Shown piece by piece: positions 1,542 to 33,493 of a stretch of 33,493 nt of DNA; positions within the stretch are counted from its first letter, which is position 1, and each line of letters starts with the position of its first letter. Made by a program: the position numbers and the translations under genes. The notes under the pieces are model-generated. The model was not told the DNA's origin, made no database searches, and saw only the letters and a program-made list of their open reading frames with translations. The stretch lies in IMG/VR virus record IMGVR_UViG_3300031088_000789, one strand, 5' to 3'. This DNA is from an uncultured virus (IMG/VR IMGVR_UViG_3300031088_000789) (taxonomy: Duplodnaviria > Heunggongvirae > Uroviricota > Caudoviricetes).

Positions 1542-1784
1542 ATGTCTGACGGTAAAGTTGTCAATCCAGCAGGTGAACGCATTTCTGTATGTGGTAATTC
1601 CTACTACTCAGTCCAATATGGGTTGTGTGTTGGCATTGCTTTTTTCAAAGATGATATCTGGTGTTTCACTGGCTATCCGGCTGTTCATACCGACGAACTG
1701 AAGTATGACATGGTGGTTTTCAAGCATATCATTAGACATGATGATTTGCTCACTGATGCGAATCTTCTGCGAGTTAAATCCTAA
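1542..1784 (+). CDS. hypothetical protein
   Basis: GAGG RBS, 80 aa, terminator near 1801-1824. Confidence 0.7.
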   Translation: MSDGKVVNPAGERISVCGNSYYSVQYGLCVGIAFFKDDIWCFTGYPAVHTDELKYDMVVFKHIIRHDDLLTDANLLRVKS

Positions 1785-1885
1785 TCTTTTTCTTTTAATT
1801 AAGAGCCTTTAATGGCTCTTTTTTATTGCTTAAAAAACTTATTTTTGCTATACTAGACCTATCAAAACCCAATGAGATTATCGCT

Positions 1886-6237: not shown

Positions 6238-6792
6238 ATGCTGTCTAAAAAAGGCACCCAACAAAGCAAATTCATTTCTTACATCCTGCGACATGGTGCT
6301 AAAGAAGCTGGTGTACCTATTACGTCCGAAGGCTGGGTACTGGTTGCCGATCTGTTGGCTGCTTCCGTGCGAGCAAAACAAAGCATTACCACAGAAGAAC
6401 TGGCTGATATTGTTGAGAACAACAACAAGAAACGTTTCGCTTTCTCCGAAGATGGACTGTCTATCCGTGCTAGCCAAGGCCATTCCAGCGACAATGTGAA
6501 CATTACTTTTGAACCCAAGACGCCACCAGCATCGCTCTATCACGGCACCACTGTGAGCTTCGTAGACGCGATTTTGGCCGAAGGTTTGAAGAAGATGAAT
6601 CGTCATCATGTTCACCTCTCTTTGAGCCTTGAAACGGCTATAAACGTGGGTAGCCGTCATGGCAAAGTCGCTATGCTCAAAGTGAATGCGGCTCAGATGC
6701 AAAAAGATGGATTCTTGTTCTACTGCTCTGAAAACGAAGTGTGGTTGACTGACAACGTGCCCGCATGCTATATTACGCTTGTTGACCTGTAA
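6238..6792 (+). CDS. kptA: RNA 2'-phosphotransferase (Tpt1/KptA family)
   Basis: Signature motifs SKFISYILRHG, KKRF, IRASQGHS, LYHGT, RHHVHLS, NEVWLT. Confidence 0.95.
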   Translation: MLSKKGTQQSKFISYILRHGAKEAGVPITSEGWVLVADLLAASVRAKQSITTEELADIVENNNKKRFAFSEDGLSIRASQGHSSDNVNITFEPKTPPASLYHGTTVSFVDAILAEGLKKMNRHHVHLSLSLETAINVGSRHGKVAMLKVNAAQMQKDGFLFYCSENEVWLTDNVPACYITLVDL

Positions 6793-7546: not shown

Positions 7547-8623
7547 ATGTCAATAAATATGCGAACTGAATACGATGCCTTAATTCAAGCTTTTGTGGCC
7601 GATAATTACGAGACGCTAGCTAAGGCTAAACAATATCGCCCTGAGCGTGAACGTGAATCTTGTTGGTCTTATATTGCTGAACGAAATCAACCTACGGATA
7701 TGTACTATCTTCGTGCTAACCCTAAGTTCAGGGCTTTGGTTACAACATTTGTTGACAAATTCCTGTATCGTGAAGGATTGAAATTTCATTTACGTTTTCA
7801 CATGGCGGCTCTTGATGGTCAGTTACTGACTGATCTTATGGATAATAAAGAGAATGTTCGTGGTTACAACTATTTCAGTCGTGACAATCTAATTGAACAT
7901 TTTTCACTTCATTTGTTAATGGATGTATTTACGATCTTTATCTATATTCGTGATAAAGAAACAGGGGCTATTCACTATCATCTTTTTGCTTATGATGACA
8001 ACCGTATTGAAATTAAAGGAAACTCCACTTGTCCTACTTGTAATGCTTACTTTTCTTTACTTGTTGATTACACACAAAATGCAATCATTATTGATGATAT
8101 TATGCCAGTTGCCGATTGTGTTAAAAAGATTCCAACGCGAGTTAATGTGACTCTAAAAAGCCCTTCTGGTAAGTTGGTGTTTCTTAACGAACCTAGTCAG
8201 TTCTTTAAACATCAGCGTGAAGATAAGTATGATCTTTCTATTAACTCGACATTAGGCTGTATTGCAGAAACTAAATTCTACGCCGAGCATAATATTGGCT
8301 TCTTCTTTATTGGGAACACAACTGCTTATATCATGCAAAAAGATGGCGAAATCTTGGCTACTTTGTTTGATGAGTATAATGATAAGGAAGTGGTTAAATA
8401 CAAAGACTATACGCTTCGCGGTGATGTTTGCACGGGGGTTTGGTGGTATACCGTTCTTGACCATGACCTCTATTTGAAGCTCTGTGCCGATCATAACGTA
8501 GATCCAGCATCTATTGAACACAGTGTGGTGCAAATTAATGCCACTAAGTATAAAGTCAGTCATGGGCTGGCGGCTCATCGTAAGGGCCACCATAGAGGGG
8601 TCTATTCAAAGATTACATACTAA
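7547..8623 (+). CDS. hypothetical CxxC-containing protein, paralogue of 10727-11788
   Basis: GAGGA RBS; CPTC, SPSGKLVFLN, SINSxLGCIxET, WWYTVLD shared with 10727 ORF. Confidence 0.9.
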   Translation: MSINMRTEYDALIQAFVADNYETLAKAKQYRPERERESCWSYIAERNQPTDMYYLRANPKFRALVTTFVDKFLYREGLKFHLRFHMAALDGQLLTDLMDNKENVRGYNYFSRDNLIEHFSLHLLMDVFTIFIYIRDKETGAIHYHLFAYDDNRIEIKGNSTCPTCNAYFSLLVDYTQNAIIIDDIMPVADCVKKIPTRVNVTLKSPSGKLVFLNEPSQFFKHQREDKYDLSINSTLGCIAETKFYAEHNIGFFFIGNTTAYIMQKDGEILATLFDEYNDKEVVKYKDYTLRGDVCTGVWWYTVLDHDLYLKLCADHNVDPASIEHSVVQINATKYKVSHGLAAHRKGHHRGVYSKITY

Positions 8624-8718: not shown

Positions 8719-9594
8719 TTATTTTAGAATAAAATTCAATTTCTTATATTCTTCTTCATAATTTCTTGTTTTTATTTCATCTTGGATTTTCTTAAAATTA
8801 TCATAGACTTCTTTATTATACACTGTCATTTTAGCTACACTTGATTGGATTTTGCTATAACGATTATCTTCATCTTTCAAATCATCCGCAATTTCAATTA
8901 CTATGTTATCTTTTTCATACAAACGTTCACCAATTAACCAGCCCAACAAATTCTTATTGGTATACCCTTTATTTTTAATTGCTTTAACATATTCATTAAG
9001 GATATAATTAATAGCGTTGACATCTACAGGATCTAGACTAACGTAGAACTTCTGTGTTTTGGTTCTTAATGTTGCTTTTAATACATAACCATACGCATAG
9101 CTATATGTAACACTATATTTATCTTCGTTAACCTCAAATTCTGTTAATGGACTATCTTTGACATTAAGAGTCATCAAAACTCCATTGTTATAGAAATCCA
9201 TTTTTTTAATCAATGAAGCTTTAACTATACCAAGTGATGTGTATTCATTTCTTGGTTTTGTATCATCATCGTTGAAAAGTTCATAGAAAAATTTTTTACG
9301 ATATTCAACGGCTGTTGGATGAGAACTTCTAAAATAGAAAAAATAGTCTACTTGCTCGTTTGGCACAAAAACTGTTAATTCATCTTGTTTTCCTACTTGC
9401 TTAGTTAGCTCATTAACTGTTGGTGGCACATTATTTAGATCGTAATTTTTAAAAATGTTTGAAAACTTTTCATTCTCAGGAGCACTCATATCAATTTTAG
9501 GTTTGATTTGAATTTCGACAGCTACTGCATTCGACATCGCCATCATCGCCATGCCCATGCAACCCATGATAGTAATGATTTTTCTTTTCAGCAT
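8719..9594 (-). CDS. exported protein with signal peptide, paralogue of 9712-10590
   Basis: MLKRK + hydrophobic stretch + AVA site; QVGKQxELxVFV, LIKKMDFYxNGV, YGYVLKA shared; AGGAG RBS. Confidence 0.85.
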   Translation of the reverse strand: MLKRKIITIMGCMGMAMMAMSNAVAVEIQIKPKIDMSAPENEKFSNIFKNYDLNNVPPTVNELTKQVGKQDELTVFVPNEQVDYFFYFRSSHPTAVEYRKKFFYELFNDDDTKPRNEYTSLGIVKASLIKKMDFYNNGVLMTLNVKDSPLTEFEVNEDKYSVTYSYAYGYVLKATLRTKTQKFYVSLDPVDVNAINYILNEYVKAIKNKGYTNKNLLGWLIGERLYEKDNIVIEIADDLKDEDNRYSKIQSSVAKMTVYNKEVYDNFKKIQDEIKTRNYEEEYKKLNFILK

Positions 9595-9666
9595 TTTAAA
9601 GGCTCCTTTTATGATGGTTGTATTTTATCATGCAAAATTTTTAAACACAACATTTTTGCAATTTAT

Positions 9667-9695
9667 AAAAAAAGGCCACCTTTCGGCAGCCTTTT
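9667..9695 (-). terminator. intrinsic terminator between the two minus-strand genes
   Basis: A7, AAGGC...GCCTT imperfect hairpin. Confidence 0.55.
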
Positions 9696-9711
9696 GGGAT
9701 TATCAATTTTA

Positions 9712-10590
9712 TTAGTTTTGTAGAATCTTACCCAGTAGGTGATACTTCTTTTCTTGGTCTAGTTCTTTAAAGTTTTCAACTAGCTTGTCGTAATTGTCAT
9801 ACGTCTCTTTGGTATAAAATGCCATGTTGGCTGAGTTGTCATCCATTCCAAGTAGATACGCATATTTCGAATCAGTTTTATAGTGGCTGATATTTACGAT
9901 GCTATCACCTTTAACATAGGCTGTTTCATCGTTGATGTAACCCCACAAACTGTTATATGAATAATCTTTATTTTTTACCGCTTGTTTGTATGCTCCAAGC
10001 AAGTAGTTCATTTTTTCGTCATCTGGGTCACTTTTACTTTTGATAATAGTCTGAAGTTCAGCTTTCAACACATAACCATAACCAAATGTATAGACAACGG
10101 AAATATTAGTGGATAGGTCATCGACCTTGAATTCAGTGTATGGGCTATTTTCTACATCAATCACCAGCATTACACCATTTTCATAAAAGTCCATTTTTTT
10201 GATTAATTTCATATCAACCATACCACTTTTGGGATTAACTTTGGTAGGTATTTGATTTTTTCCACTGAGTACTCCACTGTAGTGTATTTTACGATGTTCT
10301 ACTGCATCAGGATGATTACTCATGAAATAATGCAAATTCAACATGCTTTGCTCAGAAACAAAAACCTTCAGTTCACTTTGTTTTCCGACTTGGCTTGCCA
10401 TTTTTTCAAATGATGGAGATTTTTTGCCATCGTCATATACAGGTATTGGAGTGCTTAATTTTACAAACATGAGATTTTTTTGAAACGTTTGATTGACTTT
10501 CAGCATTTTCAAACGCAAGTCATCACTCGCATGAGCTAGACCACCCATCAGTAAAGAACTAATAACCAAACAGATCTTGATAAATTTCAC
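9712..10590 (-). CDS. exported protein with signal peptide, paralogue of 8719-9594
   Basis: GTG start with AGGAG RBS; MKFIKICLVISSLLMGGLAHA signal peptide. Confidence 0.85.
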   Translation of the reverse strand: MKFIKICLVISSLLMGGLAHASDDLRLKMLKVNQTFQKNLMFVKLSTPIPVYDDGKKSPSFEKMASQVGKQSELKVFVSEQSMLNLHYFMSNHPDAVEHRKIHYSGVLSGKNQIPTKVNPKSGMVDMKLIKKMDFYENGVMLVIDVENSPYTEFKVDDLSTNISVVYTFGYGYVLKAELQTIIKSKSDPDDEKMNYLLGAYKQAVKNKDYSYNSLWGYINDETAYVKGDSIVNISHYKTDSKYAYLLGMDDNSANMAFYTKETYDNYDKLVENFKELDQEKKYHLLGKILQN

Positions 10591-10726: not shown

Positions 10727-11788
10727 ATGTCAATACCTATGCAAGACCAATATAAAAACCTGTTGTCACAATTTGTAACTGATAACCTTTCTATTTTTAA
10801 AGCAAACCGCCGTTATAAAGAACCAGAAGATGGTGAAGATGATTCCAGTCTTAATTACCTTCCAGATAATAATCAAACAGCGGATGAAAATTTTATTGGT
10901 GATAGTCCACAATTTAAAGAACTTCTTAATACGTTTATGACTTCTTTTATTGAGCGTGATGATCTTGTTTTTAATTTGCAAGGACACTTCCCACAATTTG
11001 ACGGTCGCACTATGTCGGAGGTTATGGCAACTGTTCGTTTCCATGATCGAGCAAGTTTAATTGAATCATGTGCTTTCGATATGAAGTTGCAGATTGATTT
11101 GTTTAATCTTTTTTTAAGTTTATCAGGCAATGAAGATTATCATTCCTTCATGTTCTCCTATGGTAAAAATAGACTTGAATTACATGGAACGCAAGCTTGC
11201 CCATCCTGCGGTACTTATATTGCAATAGTTATTGATTACGATACAAATATGGTATGTTCATTACTAAAGAAACCTGATTGTTTATTAAAGGAACTACCAG
11301 ACACTGTTGAGGTCAACTTAGAATCTCCTTCTGGTAAGTTGGTATTCTTGAATGATCCACGTCGTTTTTTCAAAGTTAAACGTGATGATCGCCATTCTCA
11401 TTCAATCAATTCTTTGTTGGGTTGTATTGAAGAGACAAAAGCTTATGCAGAGCATAATGTTGGATTCTTCTTTATTGCTAATTCTTTACCTAATATTATG
11501 CAAAATCATGAAAAAATCTTGTTTGCATCCTATAATGACGAAGACGAAGACAGTATAGAGAAATTCAAAGACTATACTAATCTTGGGTACGTGTGTGCCG
11601 ATCTCTGGTGGTACACTGTTTTGGATTATCAGCTTTACCTTGATTTGTGTGCCTCAAAAGGTGTTAATCCTGAATCGATTGATCATACTGTTGCTGTTAC
11701 TGATCGACCTACTTTTAAGGTTGTTCATGATTTAACTGCTCATAAAGTGGGTCATCATTTTGGTGTGTTCTCGACTATAACATACTAA
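10727..11788 (+). CDS. hypothetical CxxC-containing protein, paralogue of 7547-8623
   Basis: GAGGA RBS; CPSC; conserved C-terminal half ending ITY. Confidence 0.9.
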   Translation: MSIPMQDQYKNLLSQFVTDNLSIFKANRRYKEPEDGEDDSSLNYLPDNNQTADENFIGDSPQFKELLNTFMTSFIERDDLVFNLQGHFPQFDGRTMSEVMATVRFHDRASLIESCAFDMKLQIDLFNLFLSLSGNEDYHSFMFSYGKNRLELHGTQACPSCGTYIAIVIDYDTNMVCSLLKKPDCLLKELPDTVEVNLESPSGKLVFLNDPRRFFKVKRDDRHSHSINSLLGCIEETKAYAEHNVGFFFIANSLPNIMQNHEKILFASYNDEDEDSIEKFKDYTNLGYVCADLWWYTVLDYQLYLDLCASKGVNPESIDHTVAVTDRPTFKVVHDLTAHKVGHHFGVFSTITY

Positions 11789-23232: not shown

Positions 23233-23391
23233 CTTTATTCATTTTTATTCGCTAGTCGTTTTGCAATGAAAACTAAAAAAATCAAATATATTTCTGTTAT
23301 TTTTTCGCTAGTGTTGATGATCTTCACCAAGGTTTTATCAAAATTAAGAATTACTGAATTCCTTTTATAAACAAAAAATGTTGAAAAAGTC

Positions 23392-23420
23392 TTTACATTC
23401 TCTATTCAATTTGCTAAAAT
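23392..23420 (+). promoter_or_regulatory. sigma70-like promoter
   Basis: TTTACA(23392)-17-TGcTAAAAT(23415). Confidence 0.7.
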
Positions 23421-23426
23421 CAATCC

Positions 23427-23577
23427 CAGATCAACAAGCACGCAAATGGGCGTTCACTTGTCTAGGGCCTGACGATTGCCTACCGCTCTCACTTGGTAAA
23501 ATTCGTAGCGACACCTTCAAACCTTACTCATGACTCTGATTTGTTTTCAGATAAAGGTAACGAGAGCAACTGACCTG
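23427..23577 (+). ncRNA. putative structured leader RNA / cis-regulatory element
   Basis: GC-richer ~150-nt 5' UTR with nested stems and a GCTCTC/GAGAGC pseudoknot. Confidence 0.55.
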
Positions 23578-23606
23578 ACTGATACCTAACTTATTGGAGA
23601 TCTATT

Positions 23607-24002
23607 ATGTTCACAGACTTTGCTCATTTTAAAAAAGTTACTCAAACTCTCTTCAACTCGACCTGTGGTGGTTCTGGCCTGAAATTGGCTCAGTATCGTG
23701 ATCAAGTGGCTCAATCCCTTGGTTATGCAAATATCCATGCTATTAAGGCTCATTTCGATAGCCTTGCTGATGGACCACAAATCGTTTCTGTTATCCTCTA
23801 CATTGATGAAACAGTTCACTCCAAACATGACTTCTACGATACACCAGAAGGCAACCGTAAGGCAGAAGACTATTTCCGTAAGGTGCTGCTTGAATATATG
23901 CCTTCTTATGATGATCAAGATGTTGATGATTGCCTTGATAATGGTTACTTTGAAGATGATGATAGCAATTATCAAATGTTTATCACTCATTCGTTCAAAT
24001 AA
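23607..24002 (+). CDS. hypothetical protein with N-terminal helical domain resembling the 'glyoxalase superfamily' (Glyoxalase_8-type) N-terminus; acidic C-terminus
   Basis: KLAQYRDQVAQSLGYANIHAIKA resembles the xxSQALExVAxxxGFxxWxxL pattern; GGAG RBS. Confidence 0.65.
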   Translation: MFTDFAHFKKVTQTLFNSTCGGSGLKLAQYRDQVAQSLGYANIHAIKAHFDSLADGPQIVSVILYIDETVHSKHDFYDTPEGNRKAEDYFRKVLLEYMPSYDDQDVDDCLDNGYFEDDDSNYQMFITHSFK

Positions 24003-24021
24003 TTACAAATTTCGAAAAATT

Positions 24022-24042
24022 AGGAGCTTCGGCTCCTTTTTT
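24022..24042 (+). terminator. intrinsic terminator
   Basis: GGAGC-TTCG-GCTCC plus T tract. Confidence 0.9.
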
Positions 24043-24137
24043 GATCAATAATTTTTATCATTCTAATAGTATTATAATATGATTTACTAATTAGGCAGTT
24101 TTTGATATACTTGCCTTACTGATTAGGAGCTTTTCTT

Positions 24138-24649: not shown

Positions 24650-25627
24650 ATGAAAAAATTTCGCAGTATTGAAGGTCTGTCTAAACTGTTCACTACATTG
24701 AGGAATCAAGCGGCTTATGAAAACCGTGATTTCTCGACCTTGCCTACTTTGAACTTCACAGGTACTGTTAAAATTCATGGTACCAATGCTGGTATGCGTA
24801 TTGAATCGCCCGAGGCCATTACGATTATTCCGCAAGGCAAAGATCGTGAACTATCCTTTCATCATGATAATGCGTCCTTCGCCTCTTATTGCATGACCAT
24901 TCCAAAAGAAGTGGTTCAAGAGCTGTATAAGGCTTTCAACCCTTCTCAGTCTGGTGTGTTGACTATCTTTGGTGAGTGGGCTGGTTCAGGTGTTCAAAAT
25001 GGTGTAGGTGTGGCTAATTTTGAGAAACACTTTGTTGTGTTTGCTGCTCATGTTGATGATAAATATGTCAAAGTTAATCAAGATTACAATAACCACAAAT
25101 ATCGTATTTACAATATCTACGAAATTCCAACTTACTCGATTGATATTGATTTTGCCAATCCGGGGGACATTGAAGACCGTTTGACAGCTTTGACTCTTGA
25201 AGTCGAAGCTAAATGCCCTTGGGCCGCATATCGTGGTGCTGATGGCATTGGTGAAGGTATTGTCTGGCATTTGACTGATGACCCTTGTGATACCACTTAC
25301 ATCTTTAAAGTGAAGGGTCCGCTGCATTCTGTTCGCAAAAGTAATACCAAAAAACTGGCTACGGTTGATGTTGAAAAAGTTTCTTCGGTCAATGAATGTG
25401 TTGATATTATTTTGACTGAAAACCGTATGAAACAAATGTTGGAGGTTCATCAGATTGAACTCATTCCTGAAAACTTTGGTCAATTCATCAAAGTTGTTTC
25501 TCTGGATTGCATCAAAGAAGAAATGGATGTATTGAATGCCAATGGCTTGATTTGGAAAGATGTTTCCTCTACTGTCATCAATCGTTGTAAAAAATGGTAT
25601 TTTGCTCATTTCAATATCAATGATTAA
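24650..25627 (+). CDS. ATP-dependent RNA ligase, Rnl2-like family
   Basis: Nucleotidyltransferase motifs I (KIHGTN), III (IFGEW), IIIa (FVVF), IV (GEGIVW), V (FKVK). Confidence 0.85.
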   Translation: MKKFRSIEGLSKLFTTLRNQAAYENRDFSTLPTLNFTGTVKIHGTNAGMRIESPEAITIIPQGKDRELSFHHDNASFASYCMTIPKEVVQELYKAFNPSQSGVLTIFGEWAGSGVQNGVGVANFEKHFVVFAAHVDDKYVKVNQDYNNHKYRIYNIYEIPTYSIDIDFANPGDIEDRLTALTLEVEAKCPWAAYRGADGIGEGIVWHLTDDPCDTTYIFKVKGPLHSVRKSNTKKLATVDVEKVSSVNECVDIILTENRMKQMLEVHQIELIPENFGQFIKVVSLDCIKEEMDVLNANGLIWKDVSSTVINRCKKWYFAHFNIND

Positions 25628-26668: not shown

Positions 26669-28033
26669 ATGGCAGTTACCACCGCTGTTTTCAAAATTGA
26701 TGGTCGTCATCAAACTCAACTAGCTCGTTCTCTTGTGCTTGATGGCGATTGGCGTGATGGCCTGCAACTGCTGCTCGATGGTTTTGAAGGCATGTCCCAT
26801 GACTTTGCTTTCCAACTGCTGAAAGGCACCCATACTTTGGTAGGTGTTAACAATGACATCACCATGATTGAAGAGTTGGACGAAGAATATCAAAAACAAG
26901 TCCATGAAATGTATTGCGAAGATCGCTTCTTTGAAATGAACGAACTCTACTCGTTCGTCAAGTTCATTGACCATACTGTTATTCATGATGATATTGTTTA
27001 TCGTGGTTTGAACTACAAAATTCCGGCCAGTGATGAATATGTACGCAAATATCTGTTGCCAGATGATATGTTTGTTTTTGAAGCAACTCCTTTTGGAAAA
27101 CACTATCGTGGTCTGATTGCTGAGAAGCTTGATCGAAATACTTTGCCACTCTGGCTGACCAAAGCCGACTTTTGCACCACAGCCAAAGCTTACGCAAATA
27201 AATACCATCCAGCACCTGTAATTCAACGTGAACCCGTTAAGGCTATTGAACCTAAACCAGTGGCTGTTGCTGCAAGTCATGATGATGTCCATCGTAGCAA
27301 TAATGACTGGCATGATTCTTGGCGGGCAAGTAAAGCTTTGCAAATTGCACAAGACCATGGGTTTAGCACAGCAATTGATTTTTCCATTCATCTTCGTGTT
27401 AATGTTCTTAATGCAGTAAAAGAACGTGGTTGCACTTGGAAAACCATTGATGTCAATCATGCTGATGTCAATGAAAGTGTTACATTTCCTTATGAACTGG
27501 CTTTATCTTTTGCTCTTTCTCGCACAGGGTTGAGTCACCTTGCACCAGCATGGGAACCAGTGAGTCCTCATGACCTTAAAATGTCTGGTGATAACCGTCG
27601 CCATACTGATCTTTGGTTAGCATTAGGTTTCAATCTTGATGGCCGTGAGTATAATTACAGCACCCGTGAACATACCCTGTTCTCTGCTGTTGTCTCTGCC
27701 ATGCAACGTGAAGTCTTCCCTATGGGAGAGTTTGATACCTTGAATTCTGCTGGCCTTGATAGCTTTACAGGGTCTGTCGTCACACCTACATCTGAATTGA
27801 TTGGTAGTCATGATGTTCTGATTATTCCAAACGCCGGTCCTGAATATGATGTTCTTGCCCGAAAAGCAGGTCTGGTTATCTGTGAAACTGGTAGTCGAAT
27901 GGCTCACTTGGCGGTTGTTGGTCGTGAGTTTGGGTTGCCACTTATTCGAATTGCCGATGCAGGTAAAAAATTCAAAGAAGGTATTACTTTAAACATCGAC
28001 TTTAAAACCAATACGATTACTGCTCACAGCTAA
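26669..28033 (+). CDS. protein with C-terminal PEP-utilising enzyme mobile (swivel phospho-His) domain
   Basis: GLVICETGSRMAHLAVVGREFGLP matches the GGxTSHAAIVARExGIP signature. Confidence 0.75.
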   Translation: MAVTTAVFKIDGRHQTQLARSLVLDGDWRDGLQLLLDGFEGMSHDFAFQLLKGTHTLVGVNNDITMIEELDEEYQKQVHEMYCEDRFFEMNELYSFVKFIDHTVIHDDIVYRGLNYKIPASDEYVRKYLLPDDMFVFEATPFGKHYRGLIAEKLDRNTLPLWLTKADFCTTAKAYANKYHPAPVIQREPVKAIEPKPVAVAASHDDVHRSNNDWHDSWRASKALQIAQDHGFSTAIDFSIHLRVNVLNAVKERGCTWKTIDVNHADVNESVTFPYELALSFALSRTGLSHLAPAWEPVSPHDLKMSGDNRRHTDLWLALGFNLDGREYNYSTREHTLFSAVVSAMQREVFPMGEFDTLNSAGLDSFTGSVVTPTSELIGSHDVLIIPNAGPEYDVLARKAGLVICETGSRMAHLAVVGREFGLPLIRIADAGKKFKEGITLNIDFKTNTITAHS

Positions 28034-29038: not shown

Positions 29039-29109
29039 CTCTTATTCTGGCGTGGGTTTTATTTTTAGCCTCTTGATTGAGGCTTTTTCTTTTTCTTATT
29101 AAAAAGGTG

Positions 29110-29156
29110 TTGACCAAAAAACTCGTTTTTGTTATACTTATCCCATCAAAACGAGA
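29110..29156 (+). promoter_or_regulatory. early-type promoter (duplicated at 30300)
   Basis: TTGACC-17-TATACT(29133)-TATCCCATCAAAACGAGA. Confidence 0.85.
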
Positions 29157-29175
29157 CAACACAGGAAATCTCGAA

Positions 29176-29451
29176 ATGACCAAGCTCAACATCACCGCTC
29201 TCGAACAAGCTGTTTTGGCTAACATCAAAAACTTCGGCGTTGGGCAAGTCATCCCTCAGAATATGCTGCAGGATGGTCCAGCCACCATCAAGCCAAACCA
29301 AGTGGGTGCTGTTGTTAACAACATGGTTGCCAAAGGTTTGATGGTTCGTAACAAAGACCTCTTCGGCACTACCGTTTCCCTGACCCGTTCGGGCAAAATC
29401 CGCACTACCAAACTGCTGCGTTCTGTGCAAAACGTTCAGCAAGCCGCCTAA
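29176..29451 (+). CDS. small winged-helix protein, paralogue of 30366
   Basis: KLNITALEQAV...KPNQVGAVVNNMVxKGL...SLTRSGK. Confidence 0.8.
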   Translation: MTKLNITALEQAVLANIKNFGVGQVIPQNMLQDGPATIKPNQVGAVVNNMVAKGLMVRNKDLFGTTVSLTRSGKIRTTKLLRSVQNVQQAA

Positions 29452-30233: not shown

Positions 30234-30299
30234 CTTAATTTCGGCTTGTTAATATTGGGGGCTTTGGCTCCCTTTTTGTCTTTCTATGAAATAAAAGGC

Positions 30300-30346
30300 T
30301 TGATCGAAAAACTCGTTTTTGTTATACTTGTCCCATCAAAACGAGA
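30300..30346 (+). promoter_or_regulatory. early-type promoter (duplicate of 29110)
   Basis: TTGATC-17-TATACT(30323)-TGTCCCATCAAAACGAGA. Confidence 0.85.
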
Positions 30347-30365
30347 TACCACAAGGATTTAAAGT

Positions 30366-30629
30366 ATGAAAAAGCTCAACATCACCGCTCTCGAACAAGC
30401 TGTTATGAGCAACATCAAATCCTTCGGTGTTGGCCAAGAAATTCCACAAAACATCATTGCCACTGCCGGTGGCATCAAGCCTAATCAAGTTGGTGCAGTT
30501 ATCAACAACATGGTTCAAAAAGGTCTGTTGGTTCGCAATAAGGATATGTTTGATACCAAAGTGAGCCTGACTCGCTCTGGTAAAATCCAAACTACCAAAA
30601 TGTTCAACAAGGTAGCACTTGCTGCCTAA
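30366..30629 (+). CDS. small winged-helix protein, paralogue of 29176
   Basis: High similarity to 29176 ORF; ends VALAA. Confidence 0.85.
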   Translation: MKKLNITALEQAVMSNIKSFGVGQEIPQNIIATAGGIKPNQVGAVINNMVQKGLLVRNKDMFDTKVSLTRSGKIQTTKMFNKVALAA

Positions 30630-32725: not shown

Positions 32726-33493
32726 ATGAGCAATGTAAATCCAACCGTAGTTGATTTTGGTGTTAGTGGTTATGTCAACACCGAAGTCGAGCTGAAAACC
32801 AGCGACAATGGCACCAAATACGTTTCTGTTCTTCTTGGCCGTGGTCAAGACAATCATGGCAACAACCTGCCTTCCGATTCGGTTGTTCTGTATGGCAAAG
32901 ATGCAGAACTCTTCGCCCTGCAAGTAGCCAAAGGCGACCTGATCCGTTTCACCAAAGTTTCTCTGTCTCGCCAAGTGCCCGAAGGCAAGACCTATGCCCA
33001 AAGTGCAAAAATCGTTGGTAAGGATTTCGTTAAAATTGGTGCGAACCTCACCGATAGCGAAAAACGCACCGTTGTTGACTTTGGGGTAAGTGGCTATGTC
33101 AACACCGATGTAGAACTGAAAGAAAGCAACAACGGCAAAAAATATGTTTCCTTGCTGCTTGGTCGTGGTAAAGATGGTCGTGGTAACAACCTGCCTTCCG
33201 ACTCGGTTGTTCTGTATGGCAAAGATGCAGAACTGTTTGCTGCACAGGTTGAGAAAGGTGCTCTCGTTCGCTTCACCAAAGTAGCACTGGGCCGTAAAGT
33301 CCCCGAAGGTAAAACCTACGCAACTTCCGTCAACCTGATTGGCAAGGACTTCGAACTTATCGGCAGAAATGCCCAAGGCAATACCGGAGCTTCGCAAAGC
33401 CCTGCTCCACAACAACAACGTCAACCGGCTGTAAACCCACAACCGGCTCCGCAACCTGACTTTGATAGCTTCGATGATGATATTCCCTTCTAA
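32726..33493 (+). CDS. ssb: single-stranded DNA-binding protein with two tandem OB folds
   Basis: Q/P-rich linker and acidic FDDDIPF tail; SSB-like VVLYGKxAE...KGxLI; 108-aa internal duplication; TTGACG-17-TAGAAT promoter. Confidence 0.8.
   Translation: MSNVNPTVVDFGVSGYVNTEVELKTSDNGTKYVSVLLGRGQDNHGNNLPSDSVVLYGKDAELFALQVAKGDLIRFTKVSLSRQVPEGKTYAQSAKIVGKDFVKIGANLTDSEKRTVVDFGVSGYVNTDVELKESNNGKKYVSLLLGRGKDGRGNNLPSDSVVLYGKDAELFAAQVEKGALVRFTKVALGRKVPEGKTYATSVNLIGKDFELIGRNAQGNTGASQSPAPQQQRQPAVNPQPAPQPDFDSFDDDIPF
32744..33364 (+). repeat. intragenic tandem duplication, 324-nt period
   Basis: Units 32744-33040 and 33068-33364; 77/99 aa identical by manual alignment. Confidence 0.9.

Follow-up and report, generated by a model that had tools for sequence, protein, structure and literature searches.

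The leaders of E. coli rpsO (S15) and phage T4 gene 32 are autogenous translational operators, and ZTP, c-di-GMP-II and PreQ1-II are translational riboswitches with pseudoknotted aptamers. The system described here is a cassette in which a promoter, a double-pseudoknot leader and a gene beginning with the N-terminal domain of the Glyoxalase_8 family (PF20066) appear to travel together. The N-terminal ~55 residues of PF20066 form a three-helix domain like that of the protein encoded at the present locus, which differs from PF20066 in having another C-terminal domain and no Pfam match of its own. Pfam assigns no function to PF20066, and the name Glyoxalase_8 seems to derive from one fusion partner.

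Promoter, leader and gene in the phage-type locus

The window, i.e., the whole stretch of 33,493 nucleotides analyzed here (an uncultured virus, IMG/VR record IMGVR_UViG_3300031088_000789), consists of short, mostly single-gene units, each with its own sigma-70-type promoter and intrinsic terminator. It encodes an RNA ligase, an RNA 2′-phosphotransferase, a thymidine kinase and numerous proteins of no named function; no structural genes were identified among the 42 window proteins scanned. The make-up of the window suggests the early part of a large phage or phage-like element; as the scan of this part of a genome yielded no structural gene, we only infer the label “phage-type” used below. The RNA 2′-phosphotransferase and a relative of RNA ligase 2 (6238-6792 and 24650-25627) constitute an RNA-repair set, of the kind that is used against host tRNA and rRNA nucleases. 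A pair of paralogues (both phrog_33592; 7547-8623 and 10727-11788) flanks the region 8719-10590, which carries two minus-strand ORFs of ~290 aa without a PHROG match and is the main break in the plus-strand order. Other features of the window include a duplicated promoter-plus-gene unit (29103-29415 and 30293-30602, ~80% identical), a 454-aa protein with a C-terminal PEP-utilising mobile domain and without the other PEP-synthase domains (26669-28033), and a repeat of 261 nt within the last ORF (32737-33321).

The unit under study, with all its features on the plus strand, begins with a sigma-70-type promoter at 23392..23420 (-35 element at 23392-23397, extended -10 element at 23412-23420; 10/12 consensus positions and the extended TG), and transcription of the leader probably starts at ~23427-23428. 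The gene occupies 23607..24002 (ATG at 23607, 131 aa), and an intrinsic terminator detected by the terminator scan at 24022..24043 ends this one-gene unit; the promoter/terminator scan of the window revealed no terminator-like site between the leader RNA and the gene. Upstream, a ~150-nt AT-rich, ORF-free gap (23240-23385) extends from the preceding terminator to the promoter; it is missing from one related locus (L119) and replaced in a related contig. A sequence-only reading of this region had proposed an unusually long, GC-rich, pseudoknotted leader coupled to a small helical-domain protein. The length is indeed exceptional: 28 of the 38 ORFs examined have a good promoter-like match (score of at least 9), and the leaders of 27 of these span 11-47 nt, the gene in question being the sole one with a leader of ~180 nt. 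The leader is also GC-richer than the window (43.6% vs 38.6%), and each of the motifs named in that reading was recovered at its position.

Folded singly, the leader region is no more stable than its shuffled versions (z = +0.75; 153/200 shuffles equally stable, pseudoknots being outside the folding model), so that the single sequence alone proves nothing and comparison has to carry the case. Among the full-length homologues of the window protein, ten are close and about twenty are distant; the phage-type comparison comprises the window and three leader-bearing loci, L119, L305 and L306, the proteins of which are 62, 31 and 30% identical to the window protein, respectively. All three loci retain the promoter (of the same type and in the same place), the leader and the Shine-Dalgarno (SD) region. 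The leaders are more alike than the proteins in the comparisons with L119 (155/182 identical positions, including 77/79 over the first 80 columns) and L305 (108/180). The differences in a contig from a public run, 47 over positions 23410-24003, include, among those listed, five in the leader, all within the variable linker.

L119 is a contig of 1,859,102 bases on which thymidine kinase, membrane protein and leader gene follow one another as in the phage-like order of the window, and homologues from the clusters of P0004, P0006 and P0012 are recorded on contigs of 1.5-1.9 Mb. Such lengths far exceed those of known phage genomes; the 1.86-Mb L119 contig could represent a giant element or an integrated region, or it could result from an assembly artefact. 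When compared with plasmids, the thymidine kinase has no close match, the best one being ~46% identical.

Within this set, several of the pairings that had been proposed are maintained through compensatory changes. The GCTCTC/GAGAGC pseudoknot becomes GTTCTC/GAGAAC in L305 and L306, and the 5′ hairpin P0 (23434..23461; outer helix 23434-38/23457-61, inner helix 23440-43/23450-53), which is seen in the phage-type leaders, changes from ACAAG..CTTGT with ACGC/GCGT to ACGA..TCGT with CCAC/GTGG, whereas the (T)ACC/GGT(A) helix is retained as it stands. The ACCTT/AAGGT helix is kept in L305 and L306 and reads ACTT/AAGT in L119, although the change C23523A in one RNA-library contig breaks one of its pairs. 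The enclosed TCTGA/TCAGA hairpin is kept in L119 only, other pairs taking its place in L305 and L306. The closing helix CAGATCA/TGACCTG, with only 3/7 pairs in L305 and in L306 and 4/7 in L119, is not conserved. Overall, the earlier structure had captured one pseudoknot, P0 and the helix denoted P2 below; it erred in the closing helix and overlooked a second pseudoknot and a helix that pairs with the SD region.

A leader family upstream of Glyoxalase_8 genes in bacteria

The predicted structure of the window protein (pLDDT 89) shows three helices at the N-terminus, apart from which an alpha/beta domain is formed. The three-helix domain (residues 1-55; 23607..23771) is a candidate RNA binder and a distant relative of the PF20066 N-terminus; it is not notably basic (5 K/R vs 4 D/E), which counts against RNA binding. 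The likeness to the glyoxalase superfamily domain that the sequence-only reading had noticed is thus supported at a distance, by sub-cut-off profile scores, profile alignment and structural neighbors. The window protein matches no Pfam family and falls short of the PF20066 gathering cut-off of 23.7 bits, below which 5 of the 41 relatives scanned reach the family, at 16-22 bits; the profiles of the phage-type and of the bacterial PF20066 N-termini align over 48 columns (HHalign probability 77.7, pairwise E 1.9e-5). The predicted-structure neighbors of residues 1-56 (TM 0.67-0.75) include, below the naming bar of the tool, clusters that contain PF20066 fused to ClpN, ankyrin or ClpX zinc-finger domains. 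The fold search of PDB and BFVD gave no match at E<=0.001, and no clearly related solved structure was found (best Z 4.9). The profile alignment and the predicted-structure neighbors support homology, albeit distant, between the three-helix domain and the PF20066 N-terminus. The remainder of the protein (residues 56-131; 23772..24002), which had been described as a very acidic tail, is indeed acidic (18 D/E in 76 aa) but is a folded alpha/beta domain that also occurs by itself in viral proteins, as a protein of ~75 aa.

Genes of PF20066 were gathered from genomes around a Phyllobacterium, where they were detected in 15/151 alphaproteobacterial genomes of a class sample and 32/121 genomes of an order sample. 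Upstream of these bacterial genes, a promoter-like site precedes the elements known from the window leader, their order being unchanged. The check that had been suggested for the sequence-only reading, namely, a search for structure upstream of homologues of the N-terminal domain, was run, and such structure is conserved both in the phage-type relatives and in the bacterial PF20066 genes. An anchor-based parse, which scored sequence and not pairing, placed 46 of the 52 upstream regions (42 bacterial and 4 phage-type), missing L414, L424, L436, L444, L412 and L409. With five more matches and two operon heads added, the RNA is present for 46 of the 49 alphaproteobacterial genes with the N-terminal domain. 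In the nine proteins scanned, the partners behind this domain include Glyoxalase_7, a Lon substrate-binding domain, a ClpX zinc finger and unnamed domains.

The core of the RNA consists of two short helices and two pseudoknots. Hairpin P1 (23466..23480; 23466-68/23478-80, its register being offset by 2 in the window and L119) holds strand X in its loop and is paired in 83.3% of the cells of the 46-sequence alignment. In pseudoknot 1 (23472..23506), X (~23472-77) pairs with X′ (23501-06), immediately 3′ of GGUAAA; all 6 columns change on both sides, and the phage-type leaders, with differences here between the window and L305/L306, pair 4/4 in 5/6 columns. The longest Watson-Crick run between X and X′ has a mean of 5.07, compared with 3.15 for permuted partners (maximum 3.59 in 1000). 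P2 (23482..23500; ACC 23482-84/GGU 23495-97; 99.3% of cells paired) encloses strand Y, after which comes a near-invariant GGYRAA motif (23495-23500) in which G, G, A and A are invariant in 46/46 leaders, as are two further unpaired A residues. An alternative in which the P2 5′ strand pairs with the distal RGNA box is less well supported than pairing with the proximal GGY (38 vs 45 of 46 in the deciding column) and was rejected. In pseudoknot 2 (23485..23567), Y (23485-90) pairs with Y′ (23562-67), which is preceded by an RGNAAN box (23556-61); all 276/276 cells are paired, with 11 sequence variants and changes on both sides at all 6 pairs. In 42 of the 46 leaders, Y′ and the start codon are 35-49 nt apart.

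Across 27 pairs, 85.5% of the cells are paired, compared with 70.1% in shuffled alignments (0/500 shuffles as good) and 34-47% in slid controls, and the covariation score is 0.451 against 0.177; related sequences inflate such statistics. Kinship affects the count of doubly changed pairs (21 vs 16.6) less than the paired-cell statistic.

In L436, the RNA heads an operon of a MATE gene and the domain gene, lying 40 nt before the MATE start with the MATE gene between the RNA and the domain gene, as expected of an operon-level operator. In L444, a transposase-like remnant appears to have cut off the operon head. L424, whose match to the PF20066 model is confined to the C-terminal part, has no RNA upstream, and no leader RNA was found for L532, L536 and L537, the latter two being the weakest domain matches. 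L412, a paralogue in the L305 record, has the N-terminal domain and lies leaderless 26 nt behind another gene; its SD region (1478-1503) is nearly the same as in leader-bearing genes, and a lysine that is invariant in alignment A3 is changed, as if the RNA and its binding had been lost together. The leader of the actinobacterial L530, a weak PF20066 match, does not match the RNA model. The ~140-nt GC-rich stretch that follows a promoter-like site there (1700-1870, minus strand) may represent a sister family of RNAs that goes with another branch of the domain.

In the reverse direction, from RNA to gene, the covariance model yielded 15 matches of at least 55 bits in 150 class-sample genomes, all of them training loci, and the next-best match (31 bits) lies in a coding region and lacks Y′. 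Out of sample, 150 Burkholderiales genomes contained only 2 strong matches (54.8 and 48.6 bits; next 29.7), located 41 and 38 nt upstream of genes with the N-terminal domain. No strong match without a domain gene was found in these 300 alpha- and betaproteobacterial genomes, with 23 candidates scored per genome, so that orphan RNAs could be missed. The 150 genomes searched in the class of G006 contained no strong match (best 26 bits). PF20066 itself is above cut-off in 0/300 genomes of that class, 1/201 of the phylum of G725 and 0/101 of the phylum of G728; with the domain nearly absent, RNA searches in these groups do not test the range of the family. Short-pattern scans of viral and genome collections produced 118, 119, 66 and 101 stretches, none with the full RNA by profile search, and BLAST searches of phages and plasmids with the leader or the protein found nothing real; L408, a head-gene region, turned out to be a false homologue. 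On a Vibrio plasmid (L409:2290-2485), a 640-aa gene with a weakly similar N-terminus (E 2) is preceded by a leader of ~170 nt, in which the loop of a hairpin shows 7-base complementarity to a near-SD site; this leader, recognized neither by the parse nor by the model, may be another divergent variant.

The window leader very probably belongs to the bacterial family, given the combination of shared elements, order and spacing, exact-site model matches and protein homology. The phage-type leaders keep P1, P2, both knots and the invariant bases, and Y′ of the window lies 39 nt from the start codon. When trained on the 42 bacterial leaders only, a model hits the exact site in all four phage-type loci, albeit with weak scores (15.8, 15.5, 8.5 and 6.7 bits). 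That the phage-type leader could be a real but convergent look-alike, unrelated to the bacterial family, or conserved DNA without RNA function, appears highly improbable, although some observations speak for it. The bacterial-only model scores the window weakly (6.7 bits, E 1.9, the best site in 33 kb, whereas chance matches in coding regions reach 21-30 bits), a sequence-only profile misses the window site, and of the bacterial hairpins, P3 is absent from the phage-type leaders and the 5-bp P5 in its bacterial register pairs 0/4 in three of five columns, a shifted equivalent being predicted instead. L305 and L306 score better (about 16 bits, E about 0.006). A pattern written post hoc has one match in the window and two in 200 shuffles. 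Against a look-alike stand the common elements, order and spacing, the exact sites found by the bacterial-only model, the alignment of the protein domains and the compensatory changes even inside the phage-type set.

The ribosome-binding site and possible modes of regulation

Beyond the knotted core, the leader is predicted to form a structure that overlaps or controls the ribosome-binding site, L119 excepted. In 43 leaders, the linker pairs with the ribosome-binding region at -11.1 kcal/mol, compared with -9.0 kcal/mol for permuted partners (0/300), whereas a coding control gives -8.3 vs -7.7 kcal/mol (12/300). With Y′ held open, SD-linker pairing in the bacterial leaders reaches 0.69 against 0.28 for shuffled linkers and is seen in 34 of 38 leaders, four with long or uncertain spacing being left out. 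The corresponding values are 0.80 vs 0.42 for the window, 0.80 vs 0.65 for L305 and 0.76 vs 0.66 for L306, and the pairing fails in L119 (0.18 vs 0.51). The SD-closed form is the minimum-energy fold of the window, L305 and L306, and not of L119. In the window, this 3′ domain (23534..23599; -12.6) would pair an anti-SD strand with the SD (23534-40/23593-99) and nest two inner helices (23547-50/23579-82 and 23555-58/23573-76) around Y′, which remains in the loop; the SD region (23593..23600) is identical in all four phage-type leaders.

A putative SD-open alternative (23521..23558; 23521-25/23554-58 and a hairpin 23535-39/23547-51) would hide the anti-SD strand. The SD-open fold of the window (-7.0) has the inner UCUGA/UCAGA hairpin only, and the upstream helix is also used in L119, L305 and L306. 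The two forms differ by 3-5.6 kcal/mol in the phage-type leaders and by about 10 kcal/mol on average in the bacterial leaders, for which the SD-open alternative is unsupported (40/300 permutations as good). The central strand changes from UCAG in the window to GCAU in L305 and L306, and its upstream and downstream partners both change alongside, as in a two-state platform, a pattern that rests on two lineages.

By comparison, the leader can be considered established as a conserved, knotted RNA, including its fold, its ~40-nt spacing from the gene and its tie to the N-terminal domain, which is nearly exclusive and holds irrespective of the fused partner. The best reading, to which we give an even chance, is that of a translational OFF leader bound by the three-helix domain. 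The 3′ hairpin would dock on the 5′ core via Y/Y′ and pair with the SD, so that the folded RNA is predicted to be translation-OFF; the three-helix domain would then bind the folded core and keep the leader OFF, resulting in autogenous feedback. This domain is the only thing common to the downstream genes, which points to autogenous binding. The domain fused to it (glyoxalase/VOC, Lon substrate-binding, ClpX zinc finger or the acidic viral domain) may modulate the OFF state, and in the phage-type leaders a competing helix would free the SD, making a two-state switch. Under a more speculative extension of this reading, which we hold to be possible but doubtful, the cassette would be a portable one-component regulator at the RNA level, in which the domain reads the leader and a fused sensor domain (drug-binding VOC, protease substrate-recognition or viral acidic) releases it and thereby lifts the repression of the gene or operon; this module would then have been acquired by the phage-type element and rewired as a two-state switch. 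It could also be that the RNA and the domain are simply inherited together.

Such co-inheritance is part of the main alternative, which we regard as tentative, an orphan riboswitch for a small molecule or ion, with the knotted core as the aptamer and the SD hairpin as the expression platform. The invariant junction bases and the stress or efflux genes downstream lend a metabolite riboswitch some plausibility: the core is compact, its non-paired G, G, A, A and A, A are invariant in 46/46 leaders, the spacing is fixed and the SD paired, the glyoxalase/VOC and MATE exporter genes would suit a toxic-compound signal, and the phage-type leaders have two-state folds. However, the downstream genes share a tiny domain and no metabolic function, and the alpha- and betaproteobacterial searches, at 23 candidates scored per genome, turned up no strong RNA match that lacks the domain gene; it would also be unusual for a riboswitch class to be bound to a single protein domain. 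The same predicted ground-state pairing of the SD, together with the small energy gap in the phage-type leaders, would suit a ligand-free element whose knots set a folding-kinetic window or a temperature or stress dependence of initiation with no partner involved; that explanation is improbable, as it leaves the invariant unpaired bases and the tie to one domain unaccounted for, and the larger gap in the bacterial leaders speaks against it.

The sequence-only reading had also allowed for a ribozyme or a small RNP. Processing or self-cleavage of the leader into a separate small RNA that acts with the protein, as a ribozyme or an antitoxin-like RNA, is similarly unlikely. The nested pseudoknots and the GGCAAU-like box recall small self-cleaving ribozymes, and the leader has its own promoter; yet the C of this box is replaced by U in all four phage-type leaders and in several of the bacterial ones, the candidate catalytic C varies to U or A, and the order of helices differs from that of HDV-like folds. 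The leader also contains no tandem repeats, there is no terminator-like site before the gene and the start codon lies at a fixed distance. Of the RNA-protein module that had been proposed, it is the cis-acting translational leader that fits best, whereas a ribozyme or a free RNP is unsupported.

Relationship to described RNA and protein systems

The comparison offers a testable function for a common domain of unassigned role, the PF20066 N-terminus, and delineates an RNA family, strongly covarying in both of its pseudoknots, that is absent from Rfam and from the literature searched. Two outcomes would be of interest: the domain may prove to be a modular RNA binder of a new kind whose operator is the leader, or the RNA may be an orphan riboswitch preceding stress and efflux genes. 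As the most divergent member found, the phage-type leader marks the minimal core.

With no Rfam match and no publication found, the leader RNA family appears to be uncatalogued. The search with 4227 Rfam families gave 0 matches at gathering score in the window and 20 loci, one tRNA excepted; the leader had 0 matches at E<=10, and at 10 family loci none was seen at the leader at E<=1. A full-text search, with subscription literature mostly outside its scope, retrieved no publication on PF20066/Glyoxalase_8 (IPR045517), and broader searches, judged by titles and the opening lines of abstracts, brought up none of relevance. The word “glyoxalase” does not occur in the main text of PMC5737381 and PMC11109978, whose motif tables may bear on novelty, or in the main text and one supplement of PMC8632094. 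A “protein binding candidate” class, with which the present family can be compared, is defined in PMC11109978. A genome-wide scan describes cluster #630,527, in which a covarying motif precedes genes of the glyoxalase, flavin monooxygenase or NmrA-like type (bioRxiv 10.64898/2026.10.21.760802). By this description, the motif resembles the leader family in covarying in front of glyoxalase genes, but its set of downstream genes is not seen here and it is probably different.

HDV-like and other small self-cleaving ribozymes differ in their invariant catalytic base, which the leader family lacks along with an Rfam match. The tandem pseudoknot repeats of type III toxin-antitoxin RNAs are absent from this single-copy leader, as are a terminator-like site between RNA and gene and a match to any nuclease family. 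The ZTP, c-di-GMP-II and PreQ1-II riboswitches are closer: as in the leader family, invariant junction bases lie in a compact core, and sequestration of the SD comes after it; the family differs from them in the lack of an Rfam match and in downstream genes without a common pathway. Compared with the rpsO and gene 32 operators, the leader family has two pseudoknots, no Rfam match and many unrelated fusion partners, and the protein is neither a known nucleic-acid binder nor one with a known primary target; what it has in common with these operators is a pseudoknotted 5′ leader that lies near the SD of the gene for the proposed binder and can head an operon.
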